Made by a program: the position numbers and the translations under genes. From positions 44,744-108,743 of the forward strand of contig JBKJNB010000116.1 of the NCBI GenBank assembly GCA_046595995.1: a stretch of 64,000 nucleotides of DNA, read 5' to 3'. Every line of letters begins with the position of its first letter. The first letter of the stretch is position 1. The DNA comes from Candidatus Kapaibacteriota bacterium. Lineage in GTDB: Bacteria > Bacteroidota > Ignavibacteria > Kapaibacteriales > Kapaibacteriaceae. The notes beneath the pieces were generated by a model that had not been told where the DNA came from, made no database searches, and saw only the letters and a list, made by a program, of their open reading frames with translations. Positions 12,081 through 64,000 of this stretch are shown piece after piece.

Positions 12081-12109
12081 AAACAATTTCACTACTCAAG
12101 GCCACGAAC

Positions 12110-13012
12110 ATGAGCGACCGCATTGTCTCAGTAGGAAAACGCGCGATTGGCGATGGCCACCCAACGTACGTAATCGCTGAAATTGGCATCAACCACAATG
12201 GTTCGATCGACGTAGCCAAGCAGATGATTGCTGGTGCCGTAGAGGCCGGTGCCGATTGTGTGAAGTTTCAGAAGCGCACACCTGAGATGTGTGTGCCTCG
12301 CGATCAGTGGTTAATTGAACGTGATACGCCGTGGGGACGTATGACGTACATCGATTATCGATACAAAGTGGAATTCACTGCAGAACAGTACGCAGATATC
12401 GACAGGTATTGTAAGGCAAACTCAATTGACTGGACGGTCTCTTGTTGGGATGAAGGTGCAGTAGACTTCATGGAAGAGCACTTCAGCGTTCCGTTCTATA
12501 AGGCGGCGTCGGCATCGCTCACAGACCTGCCTCTTCTGCAACGCATGCAGGCATCTGGTAAGGCTCTAGTCATCTCGACTGGCATGTCGACGATGGATGA
12601 GATTACTCACGCAATCGACGCGCTCGACCGCGATCGCTTGCTCATAGCTCACGCAACGTCTACTTATCCATGTCCACCGGAAGAACTCAATCTTCGCATG
12701 ATCACGACACTGCGCGATCTGTATCCTGACATTCCAATAGGTTATTCGGGACACGAAACGGGTCTCGCAACGACGTGCGCTACAATTGCACTTGGCGCTG
12801 CCTTCATCGAGCGCCATATAACCCTCGACCGTGCGATGTGGGGAACTGACCAAGCAGCAAGTGTCGAGCTCGGCGGGCTATTACGTCTAGTACGAGATGT
12901 TCGTGACATCGAAACTGCGTTGGGTGATGGAATAAAGCGTGTCTATGACAGCGAAATGAGCTCGCGGACGAAGCTTCGTCGCGTACGCTCAACGAACGGC
13001 ATTCAGGCTTAA
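12110..13012 (+). CDS. NeuB/SpsE-family sialic-acid-type synthase (PEP-condensing TIM barrel) lacking the C-terminal SAF domain
   Basis: HPTYVIAEIGINHNGSIDVAKQMI is the NeuB-family N-terminal signature. At 300 aa it ends before where the antifreeze-like SAF domain normally lies. Confidence 0.85.
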   Translation: MSDRIVSVGKRAIGDGHPTYVIAEIGINHNGSIDVAKQMIAGAVEAGADCVKFQKRTPEMCVPRDQWLIERDTPWGRMTYIDYRYKVEFTAEQYADIDRYCKANSIDWTVSCWDEGAVDFMEEHFSVPFYKAASASLTDLPLLQRMQASGKALVISTGMSTMDEITHAIDALDRDRLLIAHATSTYPCPPEELNLRMITTLRDLYPDIPIGYSGHETGLATTCATIALGAAFIERHITLDRAMWGTDQAASVELGGLLRLVRDVRDIETALGDGIKRVYDSEMSSRTKLRRVRSTNGIQA

Positions 13013-19396: not shown

Positions 19397-19465
19397 ATTG
19401 CGTAGTAACATATTTTGCGGGCATAGGTCGAGTCACCATCGACTTCTGCCCGTTTCTTTTTGAGG

Positions 19466-21946
19466 ATGACAATTATGAGCCGTTGGAACCAATGTATTCA
19501 ATCGACGAAGCTGTTCACGGTATTTGCAATCATAATGCTTGTGTTTGCAGTCGTGGATTCAAGCGCACGTGAGTTCGGCATAACTGGACTTTCGCAGGGC
19601 GGTTGCGGTGGTGGATTCTGCCACGGTGGCCAATCTGGAGCAACGACCGTAGCACTGATCGGCCCTCGAGATGTTGCTCCTGGCGCTCTGGTCAATTATA
19701 CCTTTACAGTCGCGCACGCGGCGAACAACTTCTCTGGATTTAATGTTTCGTTGGTCAATGGTGCCGGCGGCGCAGCCGGTACGCTCGCTGCTGGAGCGAA
19801 CTCGCACGTCGAGAATAATCAGCTGACGCACAATGCACCCACGGCAGATGGTGCCGGTGGGGCGGCCGAATTTCCCTTTACGTGGATGGCTCCGGTAGAC
19901 CATGGTGTTTACACGTTTTATGGCGCAGGTAACGCAGTAAATAATAATGGCAATGCCGATGGTGGCGATGTGCACAACCTTACCGGTGGTATTGCAATCA
20001 CCGTGAAAGGCGCGACAATCACGGCCCCTGGTGGAGGAACGTTTTGTCGAGGCACGAACCTGACCATCAACTGGACGCAAACAGGTTTTCAGAACTTTAG
20101 AATTGAATTGTCAAACAACAACTTTACCACAAGTCAAGTTCTAACAAACTCGGTTGCAGCCACTGCAAACACGTTCATCTGGGCAATTCCGACAACGCAG
20201 GACGTGAGCACATCGTACGCGATACGACTCGTAAATACTGCGGACGGACAGGAAGTAAAGCGGTCGAACACGTTTACGATCAAGGGCCCGCCGACCATCA
20301 CTACACAACCACAAAGTCAGCTTGTGTGCGAAGGCCGAACGCTGCAGTTGACGGTATCCTCTGACTTTGGCGCTGCCACCTTTCAGTGGCGAAAGGACGG
20401 TGCCCTAATTCCTGGCGCAACGGCTTCCGCGTACCAAGTAGGCGTTGCGAAGGCTGCAGATGCTGGCTCCTATGATGTTCAGGTCTTCGGTTGCAACGGC
20501 ACCTCAACCTCTAACGCTGCTGAAGTAACCATTGGATTGCGACCGAAAATCACGCTTCAGCCAACAGGCAAAAACGTTTGTGAAAACGACTCAGTCTCAC
20601 TCTTTGCCGATGGAGATGGTGCGGGTGCCACCTATCAGTGGTATCGCAACGGTTCAATCATGCCAGGTAAGAACACCAAGACTCTGCGATTCGCTTTAAT
20701 TCTACTTGCTGACGAAGCGTCGTACTCGCTGCATGTATCCGGCACCTGTTTGCCCGACGCAGTTTCTAACGAAGCCATTGTCAACGTAATTGAGCGTCCC
20801 GCTGTGACTGTTCAGCCCACAGACAAAAACCTAAAAGTGGGCGATACGCTCACGTTGAATGTAGACGGATACGGCGAAGGAATTACGTACCAGTGGAAGA
20901 AGAACGGTGCCGTCATTCCTGGCGCAACCCAAAAGATATACCGTAAGACAGGTATCGTGCGTGCTGATTCTGGACAATACGAGGCTGTAATCACAAATCA
21001 GTGCGGCACCGTAACATCACGTAAGGCAGTTGTTCGCATCGTACCAGCAGATGGTCCAGGGCTGCCAGAACTGGCTTCAGCGACACTCGAACTGGGTACA
21101 ATTCCAATGTGCGCACGCATCGATACAACGCTTGCAGGCTTGCTGAAGAATGCTGGCGGAAGTGCGCTTACGGTTACGTCCATCTCGGCCGATCCACCGT
21201 CATTGCTCATGGCACAAGGGTCTGCTACGCCGTATGTCCTCGCACCTGGTGCCGGTTCAGATCTACAACTGATTGTAACGCCAACTGCAATGGGTACAAT
21301 TACAGGTACAGTAACCTTCTTTACTTCAAACGGCAGCGCTGTCTTCCAGGTAAATGGCATTGCAGAGGCAGGTGTCTCCGTCAACCAGGACACCCTGATG
21401 TTCCTAGAAGGCGCGGCAGACTTCAGTCGCTGCGTGTCTCTATCGCTCGACGCTCGTTGTAGCACTGCAACGGTAACGCAGGCACGGCTTGAAGGCGTTG
21501 GTGCTGGCAGCTATCGTGTTTTAAATACATTGCCAGGCATGGTTGTCGCGGGTACACCTCTTGAAATTTGTGTACAAACAACCTCTGGTTCGGGCGGCGA
21601 TGCCTCGGTAGTTATCGAGACATCTGCGGGCCCACGTACAGTGCAGCTTCGTCGCGGAGTCTTCTCGTCGGTCGAGAATGCGGACGTGGCAGTAATTAGT
21701 ATCCACCCTAACCCAGCGAATGAAGGTGTATCGATAAGGGGGCTTCCACAAGGGGCTTCAATACGCATCTTATCGCTTCAGGGTGCTGAGGTAACCAACC
21801 TTACACTTACAGGGAGCACGGTTGCAACGGAGCTCATGTGGGACGGCCGTGACGCAAGTGGTGTACCTGTCTCATCCGGCAGGTATGTCATTGCAGTTAG
21901 CGCTAACCACACTGTGTCAGTATATACGCTAATCATTGCTCGGTAA
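19466..21946 (+). CDS. Secreted protein with repeated Ig-like (I-set-like) domains and a T9SS C-terminal sorting domain
   Basis: Signal peptide. At least four repeats of the type TFQWRKDGALIPGATASAYQV....ADAGSYDVQVFGCNG..SNAAEVTI, also seen as YQWYRNGSIMPG... and YQWKKNGAVIPG.... The C-terminus IHPNPANEGVSIRGL...SGRYVIAV...YTLIIAR matches a Por_Secre_tail. The ATG at 19466 lies downstream of the track's TTG at 19460. Confidence 0.8.
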   Translation: MTIMSRWNQCIQSTKLFTVFAIIMLVFAVVDSSAREFGITGLSQGGCGGGFCHGGQSGATTVALIGPRDVAPGALVNYTFTVAHAANNFSGFNVSLVNGAGGAAGTLAAGANSHVENNQLTHNAPTADGAGGAAEFPFTWMAPVDHGVYTFYGAGNAVNNNGNADGGDVHNLTGGIAITVKGATITAPGGGTFCRGTNLTINWTQTGFQNFRIELSNNNFTTSQVLTNSVAATANTFIWAIPTTQDVSTSYAIRLVNTADGQEVKRSNTFTIKGPPTITTQPQSQLVCEGRTLQLTVSSDFGAATFQWRKDGALIPGATASAYQVGVAKAADAGSYDVQVFGCNGTSTSNAAEVTIGLRPKITLQPTGKNVCENDSVSLFADGDGAGATYQWYRNGSIMPGKNTKTLRFALILLADEASYSLHVSGTCLPDAVSNEAIVNVIERPAVTVQPTDKNLKVGDTLTLNVDGYGEGITYQWKKNGAVIPGATQKIYRKTGIVRADSGQYEAVITNQCGTVTSRKAVVRIVPADGPGLPELASATLELGTIPMCARIDTTLAGLLKNAGGSALTVTSISADPPSLLMAQGSATPYVLAPGAGSDLQLIVTPTAMGTITGTVTFFTSNGSAVFQVNGIAEAGVSVNQDTLMFLEGAADFSRCVSLSLDARCSTATVTQARLEGVGAGSYRVLNTLPGMVVAGTPLEICVQTTSGSGGDASVVIETSAGPRTVQLRRGVFSSVENADVAVISIHPNPANEGVSIRGLPQGASIRILSLQGAEVTNLTLTGSTVATELMWDGRDASGVPVSSGRYVIAVSANHTVSVYTLIIAR

Positions 21947-31126: not shown

Positions 31127-31553
31127 GACGCGATCGGAAACGGAAGGCTCCTGTAAGCCGAATTCTGTCTTCCCGACAAGCGGGGAGGCAGTCATTTATC
31201 TGGGACCGTCGTTGCCGACGGCCTCAAGCGATCTACCCGAACCAGGTGGCCGAAACCGGAATGAGAACGACACTCCAGCGCCGAAGCGCTCCTGGTTCTG
31301 CTTGATCTTGCTCCGCACGGGGTTTGCCAAGCCGACTGGTCACCCAGCCGCTGGTAGGCTCTTACCCCACCGTTTCACCCTTACCGCACTTACGTTCGGC
31401 GGTTTGTTTTCTGTTGCACTTTCCGTCGACTCCGGCTTTCGCCGTCATCGCCTTTCCGTTAGAAAGCGTGCTGTTCTGTAGAGTTCGGACTTTCCTCTTG
31501 CAGAGTAAACTCTACAAGCGACTGCCCGTCACCCCCAATTGTCCGACCGCGTC
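31127..31553 (-). ncRNA. rnpB: RNase P RNA, bacterial type A (ribozyme subunit)
   Basis: The minus strand reads ...AGGAAAGTCCGAAC (P4 with the bulged U), AGTGCAACAGAAAACAAACCGCC, GGTAAGGGTGAAACGGTGGGGTAAGAGCCTACC, GGCTGG...AAACCCC..GGAGCAAG, and ...ACAGAATTCGGCTTA (the P4 3' strand). A P1 candidate GACGCGGTCGG / CCGATCGCGTC sets the ends. Synteny Nif3 – COG1579 – rnpB is conserved. Boundaries are good to about +/-15 nt. Confidence 0.82.
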
Positions 31554-37600: not shown

Positions 37601-38363
37601 TGAGGCCCGAAAGTTATACGACGATGCCAATGCCTTGCTCGACACGATCATCGCAGACGGAAGTCTGCGCGCGCGCGCTGTATGCGGCTTGTTTCCAGCA
37701 GTTTCCGTATCCGATGACATCGAAGTGACCGTTGGAAGTGACGTCAAAACCCTCCATACCCTGCGTCAGCAGTCCAAGCGTGCCTCAGGCGTTCCGAATT
37801 TGGCACTGTCCGACTATCTCGCACCAAAAGCATCGAATATTCAAGACTATATGGGTGCATTTGTGGTCAGTGCAGGCGAAGGAGCAGACGCATTGTGTGC
37901 TCGATACGAATCTGAGAACGACGATTACAGTGCAATCATGGTGAAATCCATTGCAGACCGGCTAGCTGAGGCGTGCGCAGAGTGGCTGCATCAGAAGGTT
38001 CGTACGGACCTTTGGGGATATTCCAAAGACGAGTCGCCGCTTACATCTTCCGAACTCGCAGATGAACGCTATGTAGGTATACGGCCTGCCCCAGGCTATC
38101 CCGCTTGCCCTGACCATACAGAAAAATCTGAGCTCTTCGCGATGTTGGATGCGGAAAAAATGACGGGAGTATCGCTCACTGAAAGCCTGGCCATGTATCC
38201 TGCGGCAAGTGTCAGTGGCTGGTATTTCGCTCATCCCGACTCGAAATATTTCGCTGTAGGCAAGATTACGCAGGAGCAGGTTGCTGACTACGCACATCGA
38301 AAGGGTATGACAATCGACGAATGTGAGCGATGGCTCTCACCCATACTTGCTTATGACGCCTGA
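34653..38363 (+). CDS. metH: Cobalamin-dependent methionine synthase
   Basis: 1236 aa with Hcy, pterin, B12-binding ([11 protein letters not shown]) and AdoMet reactivation domains in canonical order. Confidence 0.95.
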
Positions 38364-38994: not shown

Positions 38995-39225
38995 CGTTTC
39001 GATCGAAACTTTTAGGTGTGGCTACTGTTGTTATTAAGAGTCAGGATCACCGAATAAACCACTCGGTATTACGATTGAGTAAAAAAGTCTTGACTATGAG
39101 AGTCGAATTGGTGATTTTAAACGATGCTTCTCTGCGAAGAACTGGGCAAAACTGCGTCTAACGACGCCAAACAATAGCGAAAGAATCAAATTCATGTACT
39201 TGTTCACCGTATCTCCGAGGTTTTC

Positions 39226-42200
39226 ATGAAGGGCAGACTCCTACTTCTTGCTCTCGTGACTGGTTTTGCAGGCGTGACGCTTGCTTTTGCTGGCGACGGG
39301 AAAGATGGTGAGGACGTGTTGCGTAAGAGCGGTCCACGGGCACCGGTAGCTTCATATCCGCTACCGTTCACCCTCAACGCCGACAATCCACGAACCACTC
39401 CACCTATTTCTACCGGTTACTACTTCGTCGACTCCGACGATGAAGCGCCGGATTTTTGGCGGCCAGACCCGACGACGTTCGTCGACACGCTTACCGAACC
39501 CGGTACGTGGCGTCGTATCGTCTCTGGCGCAAAGCAAATCCCAAGTGGCTATTGGACCAGTCCGTCCGATAACACGTATGGTGGCTTTGCCTACTTCCGT
39601 AATCCTGGCAATGTTCAGGATAGTACGGACGACGCGTTTGCGGGTCCGATTTCAATCGGTTTCCCATTCTACTTCAACGGAGTGCGTTATGACTCGTTGT
39701 ACATTTCTACGAACGGTCTAATCGCACTGTCGAACCGTCGTTACTTCTACGAATACGACAACTTCGGATTCCCGACAGTACGTACTCGGCTTGAAACCCA
39801 GCCTGGCGTGTTCTCCGTATACGACCCGATGTCTGACGACACCAGGACACGTGTAGTTGGCCCTACCGACGTCACTGATGTGCAGATGGATAACTGGGGT
39901 TACCAAATGGTGGCAAGTGGTAATAATCCTACGGGCAGCATGACGTCAGGGATTCGCACGAAGGTAAATACAATGCTGGACGAAGCAAATCTTAACGGAT
40001 CTGGCGCATGGCCTGTTGGCACGCGCCCACCGCTGATTGCATTTGCCTGGGATGACTTGCAAGTGTCAGTGTACAACAGCACGGACAATGCGGTCGACGA
40101 TTTCTCCCGCGTTTACTACAAGCGCTCACCAGCCAACGACAAGTTCATCGTCTATTATGTGAACCTTACACCGATTGGCCCTAAGACTGCTATCGTCGGT
40201 GCTGTGAGACATGACGTGACGTTCTTTAAAGACAACCGTCCTGGCATCGGCGAGCACTATCGCTTTAGCGGACAGGTAACGCTTAATCGTAACGACTCTT
40301 CAGTTACGATTCAATACGAAAAATTCTTTGGCATCGCGCCTCGTTCAGCGCTGCAGCCACACGGTGCAGTTGTATGGATGCGTTGTAATTCAACTGTTGG
40401 TGTAACAGGCCCAGCTCGCCGCTTGAACTGGACAGGTTTCCCTGCGGTGATGCCTACGAATACCATCCTTGATTTCTCTGTGCCTAAGTATACACAGTCA
40501 ACAGAGTACTTGTTTAACGTTCTTACGCACCCGCTCGGTGGTCTTCGCGCCGTCAGCAATCGTAATGATGATCAAACAGTACCAAAGGATTTTCTTTCTA
40601 TTCGATTCAAGCAGTACAAGAACTTCCTTCGCGTAATCAACGTGTTTTATCGTGTTCGTCCTCTGAACAACAACGCTCCTCTCGACTTCTCGGTTGTTGT
40701 ACCAACGGCACAGGCAAACAACTACGAGTTGCTAGCAGGTGAGCTTCGTCTTGGCGCAATTCAACCTGTAGCCATTGTTCAAAACCTCACAAACGACGTC
40801 CAAGGTCCAAACGGTGTGAATTACACCCGCCAGGGCATCAATTTCAAAGTGCGCTTCCGCATTATGAATGAAGCGACGGGTAAGATTGTGTACAACACGT
40901 CGAAGTCCGTTACCGATGCCAATCTGCGGGATTCGACATTGTCGGGCATTCAGCGCAGTGATGTGAACGGTGTAAACCGTCCATATCAGCCTGTTAACAC
41001 GTTTGTCCTTCCATATGAATTCATCAAGGTTACATTCCCTCCGTTTGAACCGAATGAATTCATCGACGATCAAATCGGTCGCTTGATCACATCCGTGATT
41101 GTTGAGCCGAAAGACTCACTCAATCAGCCACTTGGCGATCAATGGCCGTTTGACGATACAACTGGCTTGCGTCTGTTTGTAATGCGCCGTCTTGAAACTT
41201 TCAATGATGACGTTCGCGAATTCCACCTTGTCGGTGGTGCTGCTATGCCTTCGGTCTTGAAGTGGGTTAACATCGAAGCAGATGTTGTTGATGGTGACGA
41301 AGTCACGAACAACCCACCTCCTCCTCGTGGTGAGTTCAAGGCAGCTAATTCTCAGATCTTCAGCTTGAAGTCGCCAGTCATACGCATGAACCGTGTGACA
41401 CTCGCAACGCTCGACATTCCTCCATTCGGTCAGTATGGCGGTGACGAACTCCGTTCGTTCCCTGTTAATCTGAGCCGTAAGAAGAATGCTGTGCTTTCGA
41501 TCTCATACCAACGTTCCGGTAAGCTTACAAACATCAATCGTGGATTCTCTGATAACCGTCTGATCGGCCCAGAACACCGCGTTGATGCTACTGTAACAGC
41601 AATCCAATCCATTCGCTTTATCCGTAACCCAGACGAATTGTGGGTAGAGTTTGCTAAGCCGAGCTCGGATGGTTTGAATGGCATCACGAATATTCAAACA
41701 TGGGTGTTTGACCCACAAAACCTAGCAGCTAACTATGCTCAACCATTCCGTATTTGGGGTGGTGGCGGTTACGTGCGCGGATTTGACATTACGAACAAGA
41801 ATCAACAGCTCACGAATAGTCCACTGGCACCTCTTGGTGGTCAGCGCATCGACTTCTTTGATGATGGTAAGGATGCAGAGTATTTCAAGATCACCGTCCC
41901 AATTCCTGATACAGTGATTAACTGGGTGAATGAAGGCGCACGGAATTTCCGTTTCCGCCTGAGAGCACGCTGCTTGAATAACTCTTCACCTCCGTTCCCT
42001 GCTGACGACGAAGACAACTTCTTCATCGATAACGTTAAGATCCTCTATCCTGACGAAGTCACTGATGTTGAATTCTCGAACATTCAGCTCATCTGGCCAT
42101 ACACTCTTGCACCTGCAAGCCAGGCTACTCGCGTACCAGTTCGTGTGAAACTGTCAAACAACACGCACATTGCCGCACCTGCTTTCTCGGTCCGTATTCA

Positions 42201-43977
42201 GATTAAGCCTGAAGGAAACGAAACGCAGCAGATCTACTGCCGTACAATCACGGTTCCAACACTTGCTGGTAACCGCGAAGTACTGCTTCCATTCCCTGAT
42301 GCGAACTTCCGCACGACAACACCTGGCCGCTATAAGGTCACAGGCAAAATCTTCTTCCCTGGTAATGATCTTGATACGTTAAACGATTCGACGTTCACAA
42401 CGTTTACAATGACGTTTGGCCCATCATTCGCATACGAAATCAACCCTCTGAACCCAGTGAACGATGTTCCGAAACTGCAGTTCTCAGGTATCACGGGTAA
42501 AGGTCTTGACCACCGTGGTTACGCATTCGGTGGCATAAACAACACACAGTGGCCATTTTCGCCGAACGCCGTCGGACCTGGTGCGCAATACAACGGTAGC
42601 ACCTATGGCGACATGCCTACGTACATGCCACCCGAGGCCCAGTTTGGTGCCGACGGCGGTAACGCCTCGGGCCAGCTCGCGATGCGATTTACGCTCTATT
42701 CGCAGGACACCGTCTACGGATACCAAGCGTATTGGGCTGAACTCAACCAGGACATCCTGAATGTATCCTTTTCCCTTTATAAGGACCAAGGCGGCATCCC
42801 AGGTGACCGGATTGCAAATTCAACCATTATACGCCGCCGAGGCGAAGACGAAACAGATAACGACCTAGACCCAGTGTTCGGCAAGTATGTAACGTATCTT
42901 CTGGCCAGCCCAGTGGTCCTCGCGCCGGGCGAATATTGGGCATCAACTGCTCAAATGGGCCTTGAAGGTTACGAACTTGGTGGATCTGAATCGCGTATGG
43001 GTATGGTCACGACATTTTACAGTGACATTCCTGCGTTTGGCGTCGGTAATCGTTCACTTCTGGTCGACAAGAACTTCCGTTCACGTTCACGTAACGGCAC
43101 GCTCCTGAACGACAACCGGTTTGCATTCGAGTCGACACGGTTTAGCGGTGACTGGGTTCAAATGACGCCATCGATCGGTAATCCGGGTTACGCCCACTTG
43201 GATGCTATGGGTAATAGCGTAATAGGCAATCAGGTGTACCCAACATTCACACGTGGTTCATGGATTCCGATGCTTCGGCCATACTTCGGTGCTCGTTCGT
43301 ATTCAAACCCACCGTTGTTCATCCCATGTGTTATTCCGGTTGAACTGACATTCTTTGACGGACGTGCGCGTTCGGCTGGTGTCGATTTGTTCTGGGAAAC
43401 AGCATCAGAAAAGAATAACTCGGGCTTCCATATCGAACGTCGCATTGTTGCACAAGCAACAAATCTTACTGCGGCAGCAGGTCTAAGCTGCGCCGATGCT
43501 TCAAACTCTAAGGAAATGCCATGGTCAGCAATCGGATGGCAAGCTGGTGCTGGTAACACAACGCAAACAACGAACTACAAGTTCTTTGATGCGAATGTGA
43601 AAACCGGGACGTCCTACGAGTATCGTTTGCGTCAGGTTGACAAGGATAATTCGGAGAACTTCTCCAACGTTATCAATGTGGTTGTAACGGCCGGCGATAT
43701 CTCTCTCGCCGACAACTATCCGAACCCAACAAACGGACAAACAACAATCCGCTTTGAAGTTCCAAACCGCACGCATGTTAAGCTTGAAATCTTTGACCTC
43801 TTGGGTAATGTCCTCTCAACACTATACAACCAGCAAGTGTCGGGCACAACCAATTCATATGCGATCGAATGGAATGGTCGCGATGCTTCTGGCGCTGAAG
43901 TTCCTTCAGGCTCTTACATGTATAAGCTTACCGCTGAAGGTGTTGTACTGTCGAAGACGCTGACAGTCGTTCGCTAA
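39226..43977 (+). CDS. Giant (1583 aa) secreted protein with a T9SS C-terminal sorting domain and no recognisable functional domain
   Basis: Signal peptide MKGRLLLLALVTGFAGVTLAFA. The C-terminus ...LADNYPNPTNGQTTIRFEVP...SGSYMYKLTAEGVVLSKTLTVVR is a textbook Por_Secre_tail. The body is rich in N, T, G and aromatics (beta-rich). Confidence 0.85.
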   Translation: MKGRLLLLALVTGFAGVTLAFAGDGKDGEDVLRKSGPRAPVASYPLPFTLNADNPRTTPPISTGYYFVDSDDEAPDFWRPDPTTFVDTLTEPGTWRRIVSGAKQIPSGYWTSPSDNTYGGFAYFRNPGNVQDSTDDAFAGPISIGFPFYFNGVRYDSLYISTNGLIALSNRRYFYEYDNFGFPTVRTRLETQPGVFSVYDPMSDDTRTRVVGPTDVTDVQMDNWGYQMVASGNNPTGSMTSGIRTKVNTMLDEANLNGSGAWPVGTRPPLIAFAWDDLQVSVYNSTDNAVDDFSRVYYKRSPANDKFIVYYVNLTPIGPKTAIVGAVRHDVTFFKDNRPGIGEHYRFSGQVTLNRNDSSVTIQYEKFFGIAPRSALQPHGAVVWMRCNSTVGVTGPARRLNWTGFPAVMPTNTILDFSVPKYTQSTEYLFNVLTHPLGGLRAVSNRNDDQTVPKDFLSIRFKQYKNFLRVINVFYRVRPLNNNAPLDFSVVVPTAQANNYELLAGELRLGAIQPVAIVQNLTNDVQGPNGVNYTRQGINFKVRFRIMNEATGKIVYNTSKSVTDANLRDSTLSGIQRSDVNGVNRPYQPVNTFVLPYEFIKVTFPPFEPNEFIDDQIGRLITSVIVEPKDSLNQPLGDQWPFDDTTGLRLFVMRRLETFNDDVREFHLVGGAAMPSVLKWVNIEADVVDGDEVTNNPPPPRGEFKAANSQIFSLKSPVIRMNRVTLATLDIPPFGQYGGDELRSFPVNLSRKKNAVLSISYQRSGKLTNINRGFSDNRLIGPEHRVDATVTAIQSIRFIRNPDELWVEFAKPSSDGLNGITNIQTWVFDPQNLAANYAQPFRIWGGGGYVRGFDITNKNQQLTNSPLAPLGGQRIDFFDDGKDAEYFKITVPIPDTVINWVNEGARNFRFRLRARCLNNSSPPFPADDEDNFFIDNVKILYPDEVTDVEFSNIQLIWPYTLAPASQATRVPVRVKLSNNTHIAAPAFSVRIQIKPEGNETQQIYCRTITVPTLAGNREVLLPFPDANFRTTTPGRYKVTGKIFFPGNDLDTLNDSTFTTFTMTFGPSFAYEINPLNPVNDVPKLQFSGITGKGLDHRGYAFGGINNTQWPFSPNAVGPGAQYNGSTYGDMPTYMPPEAQFGADGGNASGQLAMRFTLYSQDTVYGYQAYWAELNQDILNVSFSLYKDQGGIPGDRIANSTIIRRRGEDETDNDLDPVFGKYVTYLLASPVVLAPGEYWASTAQMGLEGYELGGSESRMGMVTTFYSDIPAFGVGNRSLLVDKNFRSRSRNGTLLNDNRFAFESTRFSGDWVQMTPSIGNPGYAHLDAMGNSVIGNQVYPTFTRGSWIPMLRPYFGARSYSNPPLFIPCVIPVELTFFDGRARSAGVDLFWETASEKNNSGFHIERRIVAQATNLTAAAGLSCADASNSKEMPWSAIGWQAGAGNTTQTTNYKFFDANVKTGTSYEYRLRQVDKDNSENFSNVINVVVTAGDISLADNYPNPTNGQTTIRFEVPNRTHVKLEIFDLLGNVLSTLYNQQVSGTTNSYAIEWNGRDASGAEVPSGSYMYKLTAEGVVLSKTLTVVR

Positions 43978-43997
43978 ACTTTAGCGACTGAATTTCT

Positions 43998-44044
43998 GAT
44001 CGAGCCCTCTGTCGTGTAAACGGCAGAGGGCTCGATCGTTTTTG
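43998..44044 (+). terminator. Strong rho-independent terminator after the giant gene
   Basis: gatcgagccctctg-(loop)-cagagggctcgatc followed by gttttt. Confidence 0.75.
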
Positions 44045-50771: not shown

Positions 50772-53401
50772 TGCTAACGGATGCACGACGTGTCCTTGCA
50801 GAGGTGTTCGGCTTCGAAACCTTTCGCAGCGGACAGCAGGACATCATCCAGGCCGTTTCAATTGGCAGAGATGTTCTTGGTGTGCTTCCAACGGGTGGCG
50901 GAAAGTCGCTGTGCTTTCAAATTCCTGCATTGCTTAGGCCAGGCGTAACGCTCGTCGTGTCGCCACTCATAGCATTGATGAAAGATCAGACGCAACGCTT
51001 GCGAGAACGCGGCGTGTCTGCGGCAGCATTGCACGGGGGTATGCCTTCGGATGAGATGAACGGAGTCCTGCGCGAAGCAGCATTAGGCCGTGTAAGGCTC
51101 CTTTATGTCGCCCCGGAAAGACTCGAGAGCACAACATTTCGCAAACAATTACAATCGATTCGCATCGGGTTGCTTGCTGTGGACGAGGCTCACTGTATCT
51201 CGGAGTGGGGCCATGACTATCGTCCGTCCTACCTCGCAATTCCACAGATCTTCGACAGCATCCCACGTGTGCCGATAATTGCTCTCACTGCAACCGCAAC
51301 TCCCGACGTTCGCGCCGACGTAATTCGCGCACTTCAGATGAAGAGTGCAGTAGAGGTAGTACGTGGTTTCGACCGACCGAATCTCTCGCTTCGCGTTGAA
51401 AACACACCGTGGAAGGCAGAGTTCATTACGCGCACGGTTAGGCGCACAGACGGAGCAGTGCTTGTGTATGCAGGTTCGCGCAGGCGGGTAGACACGATTG
51501 CAGATGAGTTGCGCCGGCGTGGAATCGATGCTGGTGCGTATCACGCCGGCAAGAGTGACTCAGAGCGTTCTGACGTGCAGGATAGCTTTATTGAGGGCAC
51601 AAAGCCAGTGCTGGTGGCAACAAGTGCATTCGGCATGGGCATCGACAAGGCAGATATTCGCAATGTGATACACGCCGACCTCACTCTTACACTAGAGGCG
51701 TATTATCAAGAGGCAGGTCGCGCCGGTAGGGATGGCGAACCAGCCGCGTGCACGCTCCTATACCAGCAACCAGATCGCAGGTTAATGGAATTTTTTATTG
51801 AGAGCACGTATCCCGAACGGAAAGCGATCGACGCAGTGTATGAATACGTGTATGACAGATCTGGCGTAAGCGTCGGAGGTACTCCGACTGAACCCGTCTT
51901 GGCCGATTCAGCGAGCATTGGAACTGATCTTCATATACCGGTAGCCGTTGTGAACGGCTCATTGAGCGTGTTAGAACGCGGGGGCATACTGCTGCGCACC
52001 AGCCCCACGGGCTCATCACGCATACGGATGCGTACTTCCCGAGAGCGCCTCGAAGAATTCGCGACGGCAACACGTGGAACACATCACGGGATAGTAGACG
52101 CTATCGTACGACTTGTGGGAGGGCGCGACATGTCGCACGATGTCGAATTCTCATTACATGAATTTGTACGCCGACATGGCTTCACAATTCCGGAGTTTGC
52201 CAGGGCGATGCATGCCCTGCAAATGGCACGACTGATTCGGTATACACCTCCGTCGGTCGGGGGTGGTATCATCTTGAGCGATGCGCGCACCGCGTCATCG
52301 GCGATTGCAATTGATATGGACTCCCTCCATCGCAGACGGGAACATGCAGTACGGAAACTCGAGGTGGTTGTTCGCTACGCCGAAAGCGTTCAGTGTAAGC
52401 GTACGTTCATTCTACACTACTTTGGTGATCCAGAAGTTAAGGGTGATTGCGGACGATGCTCGTCGTGTCTGTCTACAACGTCGCTTCGTGCGCTTGGAGA
52501 CCGGCAGCTAGCCATCGCGCATGCTGTGATGAGGGCGGCATACGAGGTGCAAGGACGCTTCGGACGCAACGTTATGGCTGACGTCGTTACGGGCACAGTT
52601 TCGCCGAAGGTTACTTCCTATGCCTTGGATCGGTCTATCGTTTGGAATACACTTGGCGAACGATCGCGATATGAGGTTCTAGAAGTGATTGATGAATGTC
52701 TGCAACGTGGCTGGCTTGTTCAAACATCGTCGCTGTATCCCACCATCGGCGTGGGCAGCGAAGGTGCGAAGCAGATTCGCCCGCTACCATCGCCCCTTAC
52801 TCTTGAGACCCCTGCAAAGAAGAATGCCCAGCCGTCTGCATTGACGATGCGTGCTCTGACGACTCTACGGAGTCAGCTTGCAAATCGAGAGGGTGTGCCA
52901 GCGTCATCGCTTGTGGGGCTTTCCGAGCTCGAACGCATTGCTTCTGACATGCCGATGTCTGCGGAGGAACTTGTACCCGCACGTCATGGGAGCGCGTTGT
53001 TCCTTTCACGTCATGGGGCAGACGTGGTTGCACTTATGCGCGAGATAGCCGAACCAAGCGTGCGTAGTGTTCCGAAAATTGTTCTTGACGAAGAAACTCT
53101 GCGAACAGTCGAAGCCGTCCGTGACGGTTGGTCGTTGGTCACCGTTGCACGGTCGCGCAAGATTACACCTGCGATGGCCGCTCACCATCTCGAGCAAGCA
53201 CTCAAGGCCGGGAAGCAGGTAGAGCGATCTTCGCTGGTGCCCGATGGTTTGTACGCAGACGTGGTAGACTACATGCGCACACACCGCCATGCCAAGCTGC
53301 GACATGTGCGAGAGCACATACAGCACGACGCCGAACTTGTTGTACTTCGACTGGCTCTTGCTTTTGCGAGACGTGAGCTCTTTAACGAAGGAATGGAATG
53401 A
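50771..53401 (+). CDS. recQ: RecQ-family ATP-dependent DNA helicase with a long C-terminal extension
   Basis: FGFETFRSGQQDIIQAV, DEAHCISEWGHDYRP and a Zn/WH region (CGRCSSC), then HRDC plus about 150 extra residues. Probable GTG start overlapping the purM stop. Confidence 0.88.
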   Translation: MLTDARRVLAEVFGFETFRSGQQDIIQAVSIGRDVLGVLPTGGGKSLCFQIPALLRPGVTLVVSPLIALMKDQTQRLRERGVSAAALHGGMPSDEMNGVLREAALGRVRLLYVAPERLESTTFRKQLQSIRIGLLAVDEAHCISEWGHDYRPSYLAIPQIFDSIPRVPIIALTATATPDVRADVIRALQMKSAVEVVRGFDRPNLSLRVENTPWKAEFITRTVRRTDGAVLVYAGSRRRVDTIADELRRRGIDAGAYHAGKSDSERSDVQDSFIEGTKPVLVATSAFGMGIDKADIRNVIHADLTLTLEAYYQEAGRAGRDGEPAACTLLYQQPDRRLMEFFIESTYPERKAIDAVYEYVYDRSGVSVGGTPTEPVLADSASIGTDLHIPVAVVNGSLSVLERGGILLRTSPTGSSRIRMRTSRERLEEFATATRGTHHGIVDAIVRLVGGRDMSHDVEFSLHEFVRRHGFTIPEFARAMHALQMARLIRYTPPSVGGGIILSDARTASSAIAIDMDSLHRRREHAVRKLEVVVRYAESVQCKRTFILHYFGDPEVKGDCGRCSSCLSTTSLRALGDRQLAIAHAVMRAAYEVQGRFGRNVMADVVTGTVSPKVTSYALDRSIVWNTLGERSRYEVLEVIDECLQRGWLVQTSSLYPTIGVGSEGAKQIRPLPSPLTLETPAKKNAQPSALTMRALTTLRSQLANREGVPASSLVGLSELERIASDMPMSAEELVPARHGSALFLSRHGADVVALMREIAEPSVRSVPKIVLDEETLRTVEAVRDGWSLVTVARSRKITPAMAAHHLEQALKAGKQVERSSLVPDGLYADVVDYMRTHRHAKLRHVREHIQHDAELVVLRLALAFARRELFNEGME

Positions 53402-56400
53402 CATACATTCGTCAATTACTCGCTGTTGTGATCTGCGTAGCTACCGCCACGACCCTGATTGCTGGCGAACAGCTCATCGTTGAGCTACGCCCATTCGTGG
53501 CACAGGAACGTGCAGTGCGCAGCACGGGCGGCGTACCCATCGTGTCTCGACTTACCACAATGAAAGTGGTTGAACAAACACTTTCAACTACACAGACTGA
53601 AGCACTACGAGCGCTCGAGCGTTATGTCGTCTTGGACATTGGTAACGAGGACCGTGATGTCGCCATTCGTCGTCTGTCCAAACTGCCAGACGTAGCACGC
53701 GTGCATGTCAACCATCGATTTGGTCTGCATGCCGAGGCGCTCACGAACGATTCTCTCTCGACAAAGCAATACGCACTCTATACCGTGAATGCCAAGCAAG
53801 CATGGACGAAGGCGACCGGGAATGGCGTTATCGTGGGCGTGCTCGACACTGGTGTAGACTGGATGCACGAAGATCTGCGCCGTGCTCTCGCTGTGAACAG
53901 TCGCGAAGACTATAATAAAAACGGCATGTTCGATGCATGGCCCATCGACCAGACTGTTGATGGGGTAGGGGGCGACCTTGATGGCATCGACAACGACGGC
54001 AACGGATACGTCGATGATGTAATTGGTTATGATTTTGTTGATCAAGACACTCGGAATCTTGGTGATGACAGAGAGCGAGACCCATTCCCGTTCGATGAGC
54101 AGGGTCATGGCACATCCGTGGCAGGAGTGATTTCTGCGACACCAAATAACAAGGTTGGTATTGCCGGCCTTGCCTTCGATGCGCGTGTGTTAGCGCTTCG
54201 TGCATTCGACGCAACCGGTAACGCAGAAGAGGATGATATTGCCGCGGCAATAGTCTACGCTGTGCTGCGAGGCGCACGCGTTATTAACATGAGCTTCGGT
54301 GATGGTGTCGATGCACCAGTACTTCGTGATGCTGTGCGCTTTGCTGCCTCGTTCGGTTGTACGCTTGTGGCGTCCGCTGGTAATTCTGGGCTCATCACGC
54401 GGCAGTTTCCAGCTGGCTATGACGACGTTATTGCCGTTGGCTCTACCAATGCTGACGATCAACGGTCTCCGTTTTCTAGCACTGGTTCACTGCTTGCGGT
54501 TACAGCGCCGGGAGAGGCCATCGTAACGACACAAGCAGGGGGCGGATATCGCACGGTAAGCGGCACATCGTTCGCAGCACCGTATGTCGCTGCGGCTGCT
54601 GCACTGTTGATGGAGCGTGCACCAACGCTGTCTGCAGACGAAGTACGCGGCACGCTCGAAGAGCAATCCATCGACCTAGGTCCACATGGATGGGATGTCG
54701 AATACGGTTCCGGACGCATCGATGCATTGAAACCCCTTACAACCCCTTCGTGGGCACTTGTGCGTATTACGAACATCCGCAACGAGCAAGAGGTGGACGT
54801 TCAGACGACGACATCGCTCGACGTGCGCGGATCGGCAGCGGCTACTCTGTTTGATTCGTATGCACTTTATGTTGGCGCCGGACTCGAGCCGACGGTATGG
54901 ACGTTGCTCGGCGAGGGTGTGCAATTGCGCGACGGTGTTCTGGGTGCGTTGCCCTCGAACGCGTTAAGCATCGGACTCAACACATTGCGTCTGGTGGTAA
55001 CGCTGCAAAACGGTCGCACGATTGAAGATCGGAAGCGTATTGAGGCGGTTGGTGCAGCGACGCTCGCATTTACTGCGTTCGAGTTTGTTAGCGCGTGGAA
55101 GGACGATACGCGCGTACCAGTGATGACCTTTCGTACGAATCGTCCAACATCGTGCGTGGTGCGCTACCGCGCCGTGGGAACGACGCTGTATAACGAGTTT
55201 ACCGACATGTGGAGTGAGGCACGTACACATTCATTCGCGCTGCCTAATGTGCTGCCCGGACTTGCGTACGAATACATTGTGTCGTGCGTTGCTGACGGTG
55301 GCGAACGTGTGGAGCGTAGCGAGAGCATGATCGTCGAGGACATTGCAGCGCGCGTTCAGGGATGGGCTACGATTAATGATGAGTCATTTGCGGGTTACGT
55401 ATTCAATGATGTGCGCGATCTGTACGGTGACGGCAGCCCAGGCTTCATTATGAACGACCTGGGAAGTGGATCGTTCGGTAAAATGAAGTCAGTTACTCGC
55501 ACGACGTCTGGATTCACTCCCCGCGATACAACGCAAGACGTCTGGATACCTCGAGGTATCGGTGATTCGAATGGCGACGGTATAGACGAAGTGTTTGGAC
55601 ATGTCGTTGGACAAGCGCGCCTTTTCCAAGCCGAGACAAAAAATGGCAATCCGTTTGCACGTACACTATTCGCCGATACAACGAGCAAGCGTTGGAATGC
55701 AGCGGGTATGTATGATGTCGACAAGGATGGTAAACCCGACTTACTCATGCTCTCAGATTCTGGCTGTCTGGCCGTTGCATACCACAATGGCGCATATGTG
55801 CGCCTGGGTGTTGCGTCGAATCCGACACCTCCTGCACCGGGAACGCAAGCCAATCGCGTCGACGAAATATCAATAGCGGCAGGCGATTTCGACGGCGATG
55901 GAAACGTAGAGATTGCGTTCTCCGATACCGATGGTGACTTGGTGATAAGCGAGTTTATTAACGGAAACTTCCGAACTGAATTTGTTAACGAAAACACAGG
56001 CAATGGTGGTTCGGGATACGTTGCACGTATTGACATTGACGGCGATACACGTCCGGAGGTAGTCTTCGGCGTTCCTGATAGCACGCAGCCCAACTCTGAG
56101 CGTGATTACGGACGCCAGCTTTGGACCTACAAAATTTTTGGTGGAGGCAGTCCAGACACGTACACGCAGATTTGGACTGATCGTATCTCGGGCGTTCGTA
56201 CCGGCATTGGTTTTCGCAATGGCCTTGGTGCGGGGCAGCTTGATATGCGAGGTGGTGATGAGTTGGTTATCTGCGCTTTCACTCGCCTTTACGTGTTCTC
56301 GTGGTCCGATGGGGTAGCCACAGGGCAACCAATCTGGTACCGAGCTGACGTAGTGTCGCCCCGCTTCCTTGTCTACGACTTTAATAACGATGGTGTAAAC

Positions 56401-57663
56401 GAGCTCGGCTTCGGCACTACGCTTGCTGGGCAGGGCTACATGTCGGGGTTCAGGTTTTCGCAAATGGACACTGCGGTTGCACAACGATCGATTCCACGCG
56501 GAGTGCGTGCACGTCTGACGACAGACACCACAGTACTCGTTACATGGTCGGTGGTGCCTGGTGCGCAACGCTACATTGTGTTTCGTTCGACAAACATCGA
56601 TGCTGTCTTCAAACGCGTCGACAGCAGCACAACATCTGTACTGCCATTGCAGCCGATAGCACCAGGAGAAACACATCGTTATCGTGTGAGTGCAGTGCTA
56701 CAGTCAGGCGAAAGTCTCCGTTCGGCAACTGTCACCGTGCAGTCTGCAGTAGCCTCGATCGCCGTAGCTCTTGAACCCGAAACGCTCAGCACACTCGATT
56801 TCGCACGAGGTGCTTCGATTCGCGTGCGTTACAGTGGTTCGATGGCTCAGCGTTCCATCGATGCCGCTTCGTTCACTCTACTTCAGAACAACACAATCGT
56901 TGCCATCGGCGCATCAGTTGTGCTCGCCGGCGACAGCACGCTCGTAGTAGGCTTTACGGCCTTGACACTACCGGCTGGTGCATACGTGCTACGTTGTGGT
57001 TCGGTCCGCAGTGCATTCGATGTACCCTCGCGTCAGTCCGACCTCGATCTAACCGTAACCGCGTCGGTTCCGTACGACGAAGTGGTGTTAACGCGTCTAC
57101 TCGTCGTCGATGCGTTCACTGTCAGGTTGTTCTTTGATCGCCCCGTAACGTCGGCATCTGCATCAATCATAACCAACTATAGCATAACTCCAATTGGTGA
57201 GATTGCATCCGTCGAGCACAATGCAGACAGTTTAACCATACACTTCAGTCCATCAGTTCCAATGGGTGCTCTTGGCACAACGTACTACGTCACGGTAAGA
57301 AATGTTATCGGACTGGATGGGGCTGCGATAACGCAAGGGGCTGGCAATACGTTGGGATTCGTGTTCGCGGCGAACGACCTTGCGGATGTGTACGTCTATC
57401 CACATCCGGCGGTGCTTAGCAGGGACGCATCGATCACGTTTGCTAATCTAACGAACGAAGCAGATGTTGAGATTCTTGATCAGCGCTTCGAAGTTGTGGC
57501 CCGCGTGAAGGAACGTGACGGTAACGGAGGGGCGGAGTGGGACATGCGTGATGCGCGTGGTGTGACCGTACCGCCCGGAGTGTACTTCTACAGGGTGCTT
57601 GCACCATCGGCCGACAATGTGTCTGTTGAGTCGGGACTAAGGAAAATGCTGATTCGAAGGTAG
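53398..57663 (+). CDS. Secreted multidomain subtilisin (S8) peptidase with FG-GAP/VCBS-like repeats, an Fn3-like domain and a T9SS C-terminal sorting domain
   Basis: Signal peptide, then an S8 catalytic triad (VLDTGVD, HGTSVAG, GTSFAAPYVAAAAAL). Repeats DSNGDGIDEV, DVDKDGKPDL, DFDGDGNVEI and DIDGDTRPEV. The C-terminus YVYPHPAVLSRDASITF...GVYFYRV is a Por_Secre_tail. ATGA overlap with recQ. Confidence 0.85.
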   Translation: MTYIRQLLAVVICVATATTLIAGEQLIVELRPFVAQERAVRSTGGVPIVSRLTTMKVVEQTLSTTQTEALRALERYVVLDIGNEDRDVAIRRLSKLPDVARVHVNHRFGLHAEALTNDSLSTKQYALYTVNAKQAWTKATGNGVIVGVLDTGVDWMHEDLRRALAVNSREDYNKNGMFDAWPIDQTVDGVGGDLDGIDNDGNGYVDDVIGYDFVDQDTRNLGDDRERDPFPFDEQGHGTSVAGVISATPNNKVGIAGLAFDARVLALRAFDATGNAEEDDIAAAIVYAVLRGARVINMSFGDGVDAPVLRDAVRFAASFGCTLVASAGNSGLITRQFPAGYDDVIAVGSTNADDQRSPFSSTGSLLAVTAPGEAIVTTQAGGGYRTVSGTSFAAPYVAAAAALLMERAPTLSADEVRGTLEEQSIDLGPHGWDVEYGSGRIDALKPLTTPSWALVRITNIRNEQEVDVQTTTSLDVRGSAAATLFDSYALYVGAGLEPTVWTLLGEGVQLRDGVLGALPSNALSIGLNTLRLVVTLQNGRTIEDRKRIEAVGAATLAFTAFEFVSAWKDDTRVPVMTFRTNRPTSCVVRYRAVGTTLYNEFTDMWSEARTHSFALPNVLPGLAYEYIVSCVADGGERVERSESMIVEDIAARVQGWATINDESFAGYVFNDVRDLYGDGSPGFIMNDLGSGSFGKMKSVTRTTSGFTPRDTTQDVWIPRGIGDSNGDGIDEVFGHVVGQARLFQAETKNGNPFARTLFADTTSKRWNAAGMYDVDKDGKPDLLMLSDSGCLAVAYHNGAYVRLGVASNPTPPAPGTQANRVDEISIAAGDFDGDGNVEIAFSDTDGDLVISEFINGNFRTEFVNENTGNGGSGYVARIDIDGDTRPEVVFGVPDSTQPNSERDYGRQLWTYKIFGGGSPDTYTQIWTDRISGVRTGIGFRNGLGAGQLDMRGGDELVICAFTRLYVFSWSDGVATGQPIWYRADVVSPRFLVYDFNNDGVNELGFGTTLAGQGYMSGFRFSQMDTAVAQRSIPRGVRARLTTDTTVLVTWSVVPGAQRYIVFRSTNIDAVFKRVDSSTTSVLPLQPIAPGETHRYRVSAVLQSGESLRSATVTVQSAVASIAVALEPETLSTLDFARGASIRVRYSGSMAQRSIDAASFTLLQNNTIVAIGASVVLAGDSTLVVGFTALTLPAGAYVLRCGSVRSAFDVPSRQSDLDLTVTASVPYDEVVLTRLLVVDAFTVRLFFDRPVTSASASIITNYSITPIGEIASVEHNADSLTIHFSPSVPMGALGTTYYVTVRNVIGLDGAAITQGAGNTLGFVFAANDLADVYVYPHPAVLSRDASITFANLTNEADVEILDQRFEVVARVKERDGNGGAEWDMRDARGVTVPPGVYFYRVLAPSADNVSVESGLRKMLIRR

Positions 57664-63180: not shown

Positions 63181-64000
63181 TTATCCGAGGTATGCGCGAA
63201 GTGCTTTGGAGCGCGACGCGTGACGAAGACGACGGATGGCTTTTTCTTTGATCTGACGGACACGTTCGCGAGTGAGGTTGAACTTTTCGCCGATTTCTTC
63301 GAGCGTCAGAGCTTGCTGATCGTCCAAGCCAAAATAGAGTCGGATGACTTCAGCTTCACGTTCCGAAAGAGTGTTCAATACCTGCTGCACTTCTACGCGA
63401 AGTGATTCACGCATGAGCTCGCTGTCAGGCGGTGGTTGCTGGTCGTTTGGCAGGATGTCAAGAAGGCGATTGTCTTCGCCCTGCACGAATGGAGCATCGA
63501 CCGAAAGGTGGCGTCCAGAGATCTTAATGGTCTCGCTGATCTCGGCAATCGACATATCCAACTGTTCAGCGAGTTCTGCGGCCGTCGGTTCGCGCTCGTA
63601 TTGTTGTTCGAGTTCAGAGAACTTCTTGCCAATCTTGTTCAGAGCACCGACTCGATTTAGTGGAAGGCGAACAATACGCGACTGTTCAGCAAGAGCCTGA
63701 AGGATGGATTGACGAATCCACCATACAGCGTAAGAGATGAATTTGAATCCGCGGGTCTCATCGAAACGTTTAGCAGCCTTGATCAAACCAAGGTTACCTT
63801 CGTTGATGAGGTCTCCCAGAGACAATCCTTGATTTTGATACTGTTTCGCGACAGAGACAACGAATCGAAGATTGGCCTTTACGAGTCGTTCGAGCGCAAC
63901 GGATCCTTCGAATCCACCACGACGAATGGCTTGGGCCAACACAATTTCATCGTCACCAGTAAGAAGTTCGACGCGACCAATTTCCTGTAGGTACTTGTCG
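63181..64000 (-). CDS. rpoD: RNA polymerase sigma factor, sigma-70 family (RpoD/group-1-like), 5'-truncated by the window edge
   Basis: Regions 2-4 are present: ...[14 protein letters not shown]..., [18 protein letters not shown] and the region-4 [33 protein letters not shown]. The reading frame continues past nt 64000. Confidence 0.88.

Follow-up and report, generated by a model that had tools for sequence, protein, structure and literature searches.

A large type IX secretion cargo protein of Kapaibacterium-type bacteria is a candidate surface coat protein or adhesin

The only surface layer (S-layer) that is established as a type IX secretion system (T9SS) product is that of Tannerella, which is made of two proteins, TfsA and TfsB, that carry a T9SS C-terminal sorting domain (CTD), are anchored to lipopolysaccharide (LPS) and are O-glycosylated (PMC12175726, PMC10202324). 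Type A cargo of this system is described by a model in which PorU attaches the protein to anionic LPS (A-LPS), and CTD proteins co-occur with the T9SS core genes (PMC10202324). Here we describe a gene for a large protein of this general kind from a Candidatus Kapaibacteriota bacterium. The gene lies in a stretch of 64,000 nucleotides (GenBank assembly GCA_046595995.1, contig JBKJNB010000116.1, positions 44,744 to 108,743 of the forward strand), which we refer to as the window and whose first nucleotide is our position 1. Its open reading frame (ORF; 39226..43977, plus strand, ATG start) encodes 1583 aa and is the longest in the window, as a preliminary description of the same DNA had stated; the next-longest encodes 1421 aa. 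In the literature that we searched, no paper connects the T9SS, an S-layer or an abundant surface protein with Kapabacteria.

We favour the reading that this gene encodes a surface coat protein or adhesin of Kapaibacterium-type bacteria that is non-enzymatic and highly expressed, a reading that in our judgement stands at an even balance. That the coat would be a true lattice-forming S-layer is a narrower claim, which is possible but doubtful. The first part of the argument concerns export. By inspection, the N-terminus (MKGRLLLLALVTGFAGVTLAFA, followed after the predicted cleavage site by GDG) has the n-region, h-region and AxA of a Sec signal peptide of the signal peptidase I type, with no lipobox Cys, and the mature protein that would remain after its removal has a mass of about 173.5 kDa and a pI of 5.6. 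At the other end, the CTD scored 31.8 bits against Pfam PF18962 (cut-off 27) and 36.1 bits against NCBIfam TIGR04183 (cut-off 23), and the family profile also matched the PorU CTD and FlgD immunoglobulin (Ig) domains among PDB sequences. The protein thus has two marks of T9SS type A cargo, a terminal sorting domain that exceeds curated cut-offs and a Sec signal peptide identified by inspection. Pfam scans of about 30 window ORFs revealed another protein (19460-21946) with an FlgD_ig-type C-terminal domain, and this, like the published co-occurrence of CTD proteins and T9SS core genes, lends indirect support to a T9SS in the host. The preliminary description had called it a T9SS cargo with a clean signal peptide and a canonical sorting domain, and all three points hold, the signal peptide also being conserved across homologs.

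The second part of the argument concerns expression. Among window ORFs of at least 300 aa, the surface gene has the lowest effective number of codons (ENC), 48.8 as against 50.7-61 for the others (54.7 for metH and 51.5 for SecA). It shuns CCC, GGG, GGA, CGA, AGG, ATA and TTA, and favours CGT, GGT, ATC, AAG and GAA. The same comparison was made in 55 related loci, each with four or more neighbouring ORFs. In 37 of these loci no ORF had a lower ENC than the ortholog, and in 43 the ortholog had one of the two lowest values; the gap to its neighbours averaged 7.5 units, and values were often 38-43 for the ortholog and 50-57 for the neighbours. Ribosomal-protein genes are also present in just one of the loci, and there the codon shift of the surface gene correlated with theirs (r = 0.42, p = 0.001). 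Where genomes have two copies, either only the first is strongly biased (ENC 39-44 vs 50-57) or both are (41-47). Because the codon bias is strong and extends across the lineage, we read the surface gene as one that is probably highly expressed. The only window ENC as low as that of the surface gene (48.5) belongs to a 253-aa sigma-70-family factor with regions 2, 3 and 4 (63181-63942, minus strand), a short ORF whose value may be noise.

The gene also appears to have transcription and translation signals of its own (Table 1). Between the purN-like ORF and the start codon is a gap of 231 bp (38995-39225), and not of 232 bp as was first described. We aligned this region across nine genomes whose proteins are 67-89% identical. 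A TTGAC(T/A) hexamer and an AT-rich downstream hexamer are kept in 9/9 of the aligned regions, and we infer that the block that contains them acts as a promoter, although it escaped a scan for the strict sigma-70 consensus. A Shine-Dalgarno sequence, GAGG (39217-39220), is located 5 nt upstream of the ATG, inside a conserved block of about 33 nt, while the middle of the leader is unconserved. No Rfam family matched the leader, and its predicted fold is no more stable than those of shuffled sequences (z = +0.82), on which grounds a riboswitch or structured leader was rejected. Of the long leader that had been proposed, the long gap is real, and what it contains looks like an ordinary unstructured 5' untranslated region (UTR) of about 100 nt behind a conserved promoter. 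The strong hairpin terminator that had been noted downstream is indeed present, with a predicted energy of -37.5 kcal/mol and a start 19 bases past the stop codon. Strong downstream hairpins are typical of the family: over 82 gene copies, the best hairpin in the 110 nt past the gene had a median energy of -25.0 kcal/mol, vs -11.3 in control windows. With its own promoter-like block and terminator, the gene is monocistronic, in agreement with the preliminary description. The upstream metH-purN unit could end at the small palindrome just past the purN stop, which resembles a weak terminator; the consensus scan did not report it.

The third part of the argument concerns architecture. Structure was predicted with AlphaFold2 in two overlapping tiles, each on a 50-sequence alignment. 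Tile 1 (aa 24-950) reached a predicted local distance difference test score (pLDDT) of 84.4 and a predicted TM-score (pTM) of 0.77, and tile 2 (aa 655-1583) reached 82.3 and 0.71; both are almost wholly beta. For tiles of about 930 residues, these pTM values suggest that the domains are held in a defined arrangement and are not loose beads on a string. From the predicted secondary structure and the pattern of indels and conservation we drew a domain map whose boundaries are approximate, and our working map is that of an almost all-beta chain of seven modules. The N-terminal domain of about 400 aa, which we read as a beta-sandwich, bears the family signatures STGYY(F/V)VDS, DSTDDAFAGP and FPFYFNGVRYDS..STNG; it contains 32 invariant columns and has no Pfam match at E<=10. 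The first Ig-like module is the most conserved, at 48% identity in the distant set. Jelly roll 1 bears the invariant clusters DDGKD (879-883) and DDxD (927-930) and a terminal FFIDNV strand, and jelly roll 2 has a variable loop of low confidence at aa ~1106-1135.

Table 1. Window positions of the surface gene, its flanking signals and the predicted modules of its product
Feature	Coordinates	Strand	Basis or detail
Small palindrome GTTTCGATCGAAAC + TTTT, just past purN stop	38996..39013	+	Read from sequence
Promoter-like block	39081..39119	+	A-run 39081-39086, TTGACT 39090-39095, 17-18 nt spacer, GATTTT/ATTTTA 39113-39119
Conserved 5'-UTR block CATGTACTTGTTCACCGTATCTCCGAGGTTTTC	39193..39225	+	Near-invariant in 9-sequence alignment
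Precursor coding sequence	39226..43977	+	Full-length homologs 38-89% identical
Sec signal peptide, aa 1-22, predicted cleavage after AFA	39226..39291	+	Inspection; pattern kept in homolog consensus
N-terminal beta-rich domain (~400 aa), aa ~45-452	39358..40581	+	AlphaFold2 tile 1, pLDDT mostly 80-95
Ig-like beta-sandwich 1, aa ~453-655	40582..41190	+	AlphaFold2 secondary structure
Jelly roll 1, MAM/reelin-repeat-like, aa ~656-945	41191..42060	+	
CARDB-like Ig domain, aa ~946-1066	42061..42423	+	
Jelly roll 2, aa ~1067-1366	42424..43323	+	AlphaFold2 tile 2, gap/conservation profile; no Pfam match
FN3-like beta-sandwich, aa ~1367-1492, N-terminal to sorting domain	43324..43701	+	
Type A T9SS C-terminal sorting domain, aa 1498-1579	43717..43962	+	PF18962, TIGR04183
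Intrinsic terminator, 19-bp stem (11 G-C), 4-nt loop, then TTTTT	43997..44043	+	Hairpin 43997-44038

The distribution of the family is narrow. A word-indexed search returned 207 relatives. The best 120 of these 207 are 38-89% identical to the window protein and mostly full-length (1245-1685 aa); their precomputed Pfam domains are CTD types only, and among their source names are Kapabacteria, Kapaibacterium, Ignavibacteria and Bacteroidota metagenome-assembled genomes (MAGs). In a scan of one genome per GTDB species we found 242 encoding stretches; among the matches listed (80 of the 242), all are from MAGs, most of them named Kapabacteria, Kapaibacterium, Ignavibacteria or Bacteroidota. In an exhaustive search, a HMMER profile of aa 45-1066 matched 280 of 1.84 billion representative proteins at E<=1e-3 (128 at E<=1e-30), all labelled as Kapabacteria, Ignavibacteria or Bacteroidota MAGs, in a list headed by about 46 full-length clusters. 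Within the same set of representatives, the portion of the profile that covers the N-terminal domain hit nothing but family members and short fragments. Judged by these searches, the family is restricted to Kapaibacteria-type bacteria and its N-terminal domain is lineage-specific. NCBI taxonomy places Kapaibacterium in the Kapaibacteriaceae, Bacteroidota. The related MAGs carry source labels that point to lakes, sediments, hot-spring mats and bioreactors, which indicates that Kapaibacteria are widespread, and we know of no cultured representative. Clear orthologs with the same synteny also occur in records titled Patescibacteria, Hyphomicrobiales, Bradyrhizobiaceae and Chitinophaga pinensis (L012, L018, L022, L030 and others); these titles look like wrong labels in the public records.

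Beyond the full-length family, a short form of about 1270 aa (the P0173 group, from Kapabacteria and Ignavibacteriota MAGs) is 26% identical over nearly the whole length. Some distant relatives share just the core of the first Ig-like module, jelly roll 1 and a second Ig module, and have other N-terminal heads: a Reg_prop propeller in P0168 (L086, 540-5243), WD40 in P0247 and DUF4082 in P0243. We take the Reg_prop propeller of P0168 to be of the type found in PorZ. All three have T9SS CTDs and, apart from their heads, nothing else that Pfam recognises. The shared core may be a reusable scaffold for various T9SS surface proteins. Altogether, we place the window protein in an uncharacterised family whose general kind, T9SS type A surface cargo, is known, and do not regard it as something categorically new.

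Within the family, both the locus and the protein are well conserved. The window shares the gene order purN, surface gene, kpsF-like (SIS+CBS), rodZ-like (opposite strand), hypothetical, AtuA, DUF2279 and GT2 with most of those related loci whose flanks are long enough, down to 39-42% identity of the protein. We rejected an inference of function from an operon, as the neighbours are functionally mixed and are cut off by the promoter and the terminator. Because the neighbours are mixed and the gene has its own signals, the conserved synteny is better understood as vertical inheritance of a core gene. In the closest genome the surface protein is 89% identical, as compared with 86% for metH, 75% for kpsF and 64% for purN, and in a more distant genome the corresponding values are 71%, 67%, 45% and 44%. 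By this measure the protein evolves slowly, on a par with metH. Conservation also differs little from one end of the protein to the other, each module being 36-48% identical in the distant set.

While the window has a single copy of the gene, many genomes have a second one, either directly downstream or past kpsF, and such paralogs are 43-72% identical (loci L006, L016, L027, L028, L035, L040, L043, L044, L054, L074, L080, L081, L085, L087 and L090). One downstream paralog, P0169 (1170 aa), is without the N-terminal domain. In 37 distant-clade loci (including L001, L005, L006 and L087), a 561-563-aa gene with PF27054 (Beta_methylindole_red_C) is found directly upstream, either 51-82 bp from the surface gene or with purN between them. 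Because the gap is short in these clades, the long upstream gap is not universal. The PF27054 gene has no homolog in the window and was not used for interpretation. As for the purN-like ORF of the window, its listed GTG start overlaps the end of metH by 41 nt (38323-38363) and its Formyl_trans_N match starts at residue 26; the true purN start is probably further downstream than the listed GTG.

We next consider what kind of surface protein this could be, beginning with its fold. The best Foldseek matches in the PDB are the two-domain structures 7kwb, 4het, 4jrl and 3hbz (E 3e-5 to 9e-5), and these matches are weak, with TM-scores of 0.28-0.35 normalised by target. CARDB and PDE6D/RhoGDI-type Ig sandwiches were also weakly matched. 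The Foldseek output carries no query ranges, so the assignment of hits to domains is our own, and the CARDB and PDE6D/RhoGDI-type matches probably fall in the first Ig-like module. Because the better matches include Bacteroides surface proteins of the glycan-binding type, one alternative is a lectin-type capture protein for environmental polymers, either anchored at the surface or released, which would be SusE/F-like in role and would scavenge polysaccharides or glycoproteins without forming a structural coat. The presence of residues that resemble sugar sites is also consistent with this idea. We nevertheless consider it unlikely: the TM-scores are low, the neighbours are metH, purN, kpsF and rodZ, with no SusC/D-like genes or carbohydrate-active enzymes adjacent, and a constitutive-type codon bias together with near-universal conservation at a single locus would better suit a housekeeping component of the envelope.

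Sequence searches did not assign the roughly 1450 residues between the signal peptide and the CTD to any family. Searched as a whole protein, this stretch had no match in Pfam, NCBIfam or PHROGs. Pfam searches of six domain tiles at E<=10 returned only CTD/FlgD-type matches and a sub-threshold match to CARDB (PF07705; 13.2 bits vs a cut-off of 22.7, E 0.1), and Pfam searches of 24 family members at E<=1 returned only CTD types, besides one sub-threshold match to NIDO (PF06119; E 0.1). Phmmer and an hmmsearch with a 45-sequence profile against PDB sequences likewise found only FlgD and PorU CTD-type matches. The motif GFPFYFNGVRYDSLYISTNG is reminiscent of NIDO; Pfam gave no NIDO match for the window protein at E<=10. 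Neither MAM (PF00629) nor Cleaved_Adhesin (PF07675) is indicated at this level, the former having no match to its hidden Markov model (HMM) and no conserved Cys, and the latter no HMM match even at E<=10. SprB-type adhesins have a long repeat structure, whereas hhalign across all domain pairs of the window protein revealed no internal repeats (best probability 6%). The preliminary description had reported that no domain could be identified; this stands at the level of sequence, where the HMM searches agree, and does not stand at the level of fold, where types of beta-sandwich are recognisable. Neither the sequence searches nor the structure searches gave a clear match to a glycoside hydrolase or a known adhesin family, the outcome that the preliminary description had named as one that would count against it.

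These results also bear on a second alternative, an extracellular enzyme with a divergent beta-sandwich. Such an enzyme could be a glycoside hydrolase or polysaccharide lyase of the jelly-roll type, an amidase similar to PNGase or a peptidase of the G1 type, with the other modules serving as binding or spacer domains, and the uniqueness and conservation of the N-terminal domain leave some room for it. We found no catalytic family by HMM, and none of the motifs E.D..E (GH16-type), HExxH, GxSxG, GDSL, D[TS]G or CxxCH occurs in the protein. A GH16-type jelly-roll glycoside hydrolase in particular would be expected to have ExDxxE and a family HMM match, and the protein has neither. Across 45 sequences, Asp (25), Arg (18), Tyr (18) and Asn (13) are frequent at positions that are at least 95% conserved, whereas Glu (3), His (1) and Lys (1) are rare there and Cys is absent, and none of these 3 Glu or the 1 His is in the N-terminal domain. 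The invariant acidic clusters, which in addition to the two in jelly roll 1 include DSTDD (132-136) and WPFDD (640-644), seem better suited to a structural role or to the binding of Ca2+ or sugars than to catalysis in the active site of a hydrolase. Finally, a fold search with AlphaFold tiles had been suggested in the preliminary description, and in this search, in which the N-terminal domain formed part of a longer tile, no catalytic fold reached the top rank; enzyme folds scored below the non-catalytic MAM, reelin and adhesin domains. An enzyme is accordingly an improbable explanation.

A role as a T9SS or gliding accessory or as a dedicated mobile adhesin, comparable to that of PorZ, PorU or SprB, would explain the core-genome status of the gene. 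In its favour, PorU and PorZ are themselves CTD proteins (PMC10202324), the best NCBIfam and PDB matches of the C-terminal region are to the PorU CTD, and the distant relative P0168 has a Reg_prop beta-propeller head. Such a role is nevertheless very improbable: the likeness to PorU does not reach beyond the CTD (aa 1467-1571 vs model positions 969-1078), on which ground identity with PorU or PorZ was rejected, the window protein has no C25 peptidase fold, no propeller and no internal repeats that we could find, no T9SS or gliding gene adjoins the gene, and the very strong codon bias suggests a copy number far above that of machinery subunits.

We therefore return to the surface coat or adhesin. 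We favour an S-layer-like protein or adhesin over an enzyme because of the codon bias, the dedicated promoter, Shine-Dalgarno sequence and terminator, the jelly rolls that resemble MAM, reelin and cleaved-adhesin domains, and the lack of conserved catalytic sets. The preliminary description had listed an adhesin, an S-layer-like protein and a polysaccharide-acting surface protein as candidates; the first two are thus the ones to keep, and an enzymatic form of the third is disfavoured, as no sets of catalytic residues were found. In the mechanism that we propose, the precursor would cross the inner membrane through Sec and fold in the periplasm, where the T9SS would recognise the CTD and carry the protein over the outer membrane. 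A PorU-type sortase would then remove the CTD and join the new C-terminus to anionic LPS. This would place the FN3-like module near the membrane and the N-terminal domain outward, and the MAM/reelin-like jelly rolls, with their invariant Asp/Asn clusters that resemble Ca2+ sites, could mediate self-association, glycan binding or both. The outcome would be a dense S-layer-like protein coat or an adhesive layer, and not a catalyst. If the protein is taken to be abundant, non-enzymatic, tethered to LPS and built of adhesin-like jelly rolls, such a layer is its best explanation.

A more specific form of this proposal is a hitherto unrecognised surface lattice, dependent on Ca2+ and assembled by the T9SS, that all Kapaibacteriaceae would share. 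The protein would be its subunit, along with the tandem paralog in those lineages that have one, and the ~400-aa N-terminal domain would be a new family-specific module with a conserved site for ligand binding or self-association. We offer this form tentatively, as one that is rather more likely to be wrong than right. The protein is also rich in D(S/T)(A/I/L/M/T/V), which we take to be the general O-glycosylation motif of Bacteroidota: the motif occurs 10 times, as compared with 5.1 +/- 2.1 times in shuffled sequences (p about 0.03). Several sites are kept among the 45 sequences, namely D132-S-T (45/45), D1161-T-V (42/45), D644-T-T (38/45) and D1054-S-T (31/45). What speaks most against a classical S-layer is that the protein evolves slowly and uniformly and has no variable exposed part. 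High expression alone could make the protein evolve slowly, but conservation of a ligand-binding or active site would account for the pattern just as well.

The evidence that this is the dominant surface protein of these bacteria is good but indirect. If it is, it would define their interface with phages, predators, surfaces and partners, and it would offer a specific marker and antigen with which to detect or enrich Kapaibacteria. It would also mean that surface layers built by the T9SS extend beyond the oral pathogen Tannerella, and if the lattice reading is true, this would be the second T9SS-dependent S-layer system after that of Tannerella and the first outside the class Bacteroidia. If the protein is merely another multi-domain adhesin, the value of the finding is confined to annotation. 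In either case, a well-modelled protein stretch of about 1450 residues without family assignment, including a lineage-specific N-terminal domain, is put on the map.

The window contains several other features. The sole Rfam match at gathering score is a full-length class A RNase P RNA (31138-31537, minus strand; 266 bits). A run of sugar-biosynthesis genes (7277-13012, plus strand) encodes a CMP-sugar-type cytidylyltransferase, a transketolase split into N and C halves, a class III aminotransferase, a short-chain dehydrogenase and a NeuB-family synthase. These genes could form a pathway whose product, a nonulosonic-acid or Kdo-like sugar, would be added to LPS or surface glycoproteins, and a link between them and the surface protein is speculative. 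An 828-aa protein (19460-21946, plus strand) with several Ig-like domains and an FlgD_ig-type C-terminal domain is a probable second T9SS cargo of the window. The ORF of 1421 aa (53398-57663, plus strand) encodes a large secreted-type S8 subtilase with FG-GAP and fn3 domains.

How does the window protein compare with the systems it resembles? CARDB (PF07705; 3idu, 2kl6) resembles just one of its small modules. MAM domains (RPTPmu, neuropilin and SR-C) and reelin repeats are eukaryotic and only 10-17% identical to it, and the Pfam MAM model does not match. MAM domains have conserved cysteines, whereas the Kapaibacteria jelly roll has none and, at about 290 aa, contains insertions. The cleaved adhesin of the Porphyromonas gingivalis gingipains and hemagglutinin (Kgp K1, 4itc, PF07675) is 10-11% identical to the window protein, which, unlike the gingipains, has no protease domain and no PF07675 match at E<=10. 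Bacteroides SusE/F-like proteins and the Joint Center for Structural Genomics (JCSG) structures 7kwb, 4het, 4jrl and 3hbz combine an Ig-like domain with a jelly roll at the surface, as here. SusE/F-like proteins are lipoproteins encoded in polysaccharide utilization loci (PULs) and are not known to be T9SS cargo; the window gene, in contrast, has no PUL context, and the TM-scores are low. The closest parallel is with TfsA and TfsB of Tannerella forsythia, which, compared by description only, are large like the window protein and, as it does, have a Sec signal together with a T9SS CTD of type A; in TfsA and TfsB the CTD is lost on export. The Tannerella S-layer is established, whereas the lattice of the Kapaibacteria protein is a proposal from sequence. 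In addition, the window genome has a single copy, and the family is limited to Kapaibacteria-type MAGs and is unusually well conserved. The genes for TfsA and TfsB are adjacent and together make a two-protein system, and in the Kapaibacteria family tandem pairs of paralogs are likewise found in many genomes.

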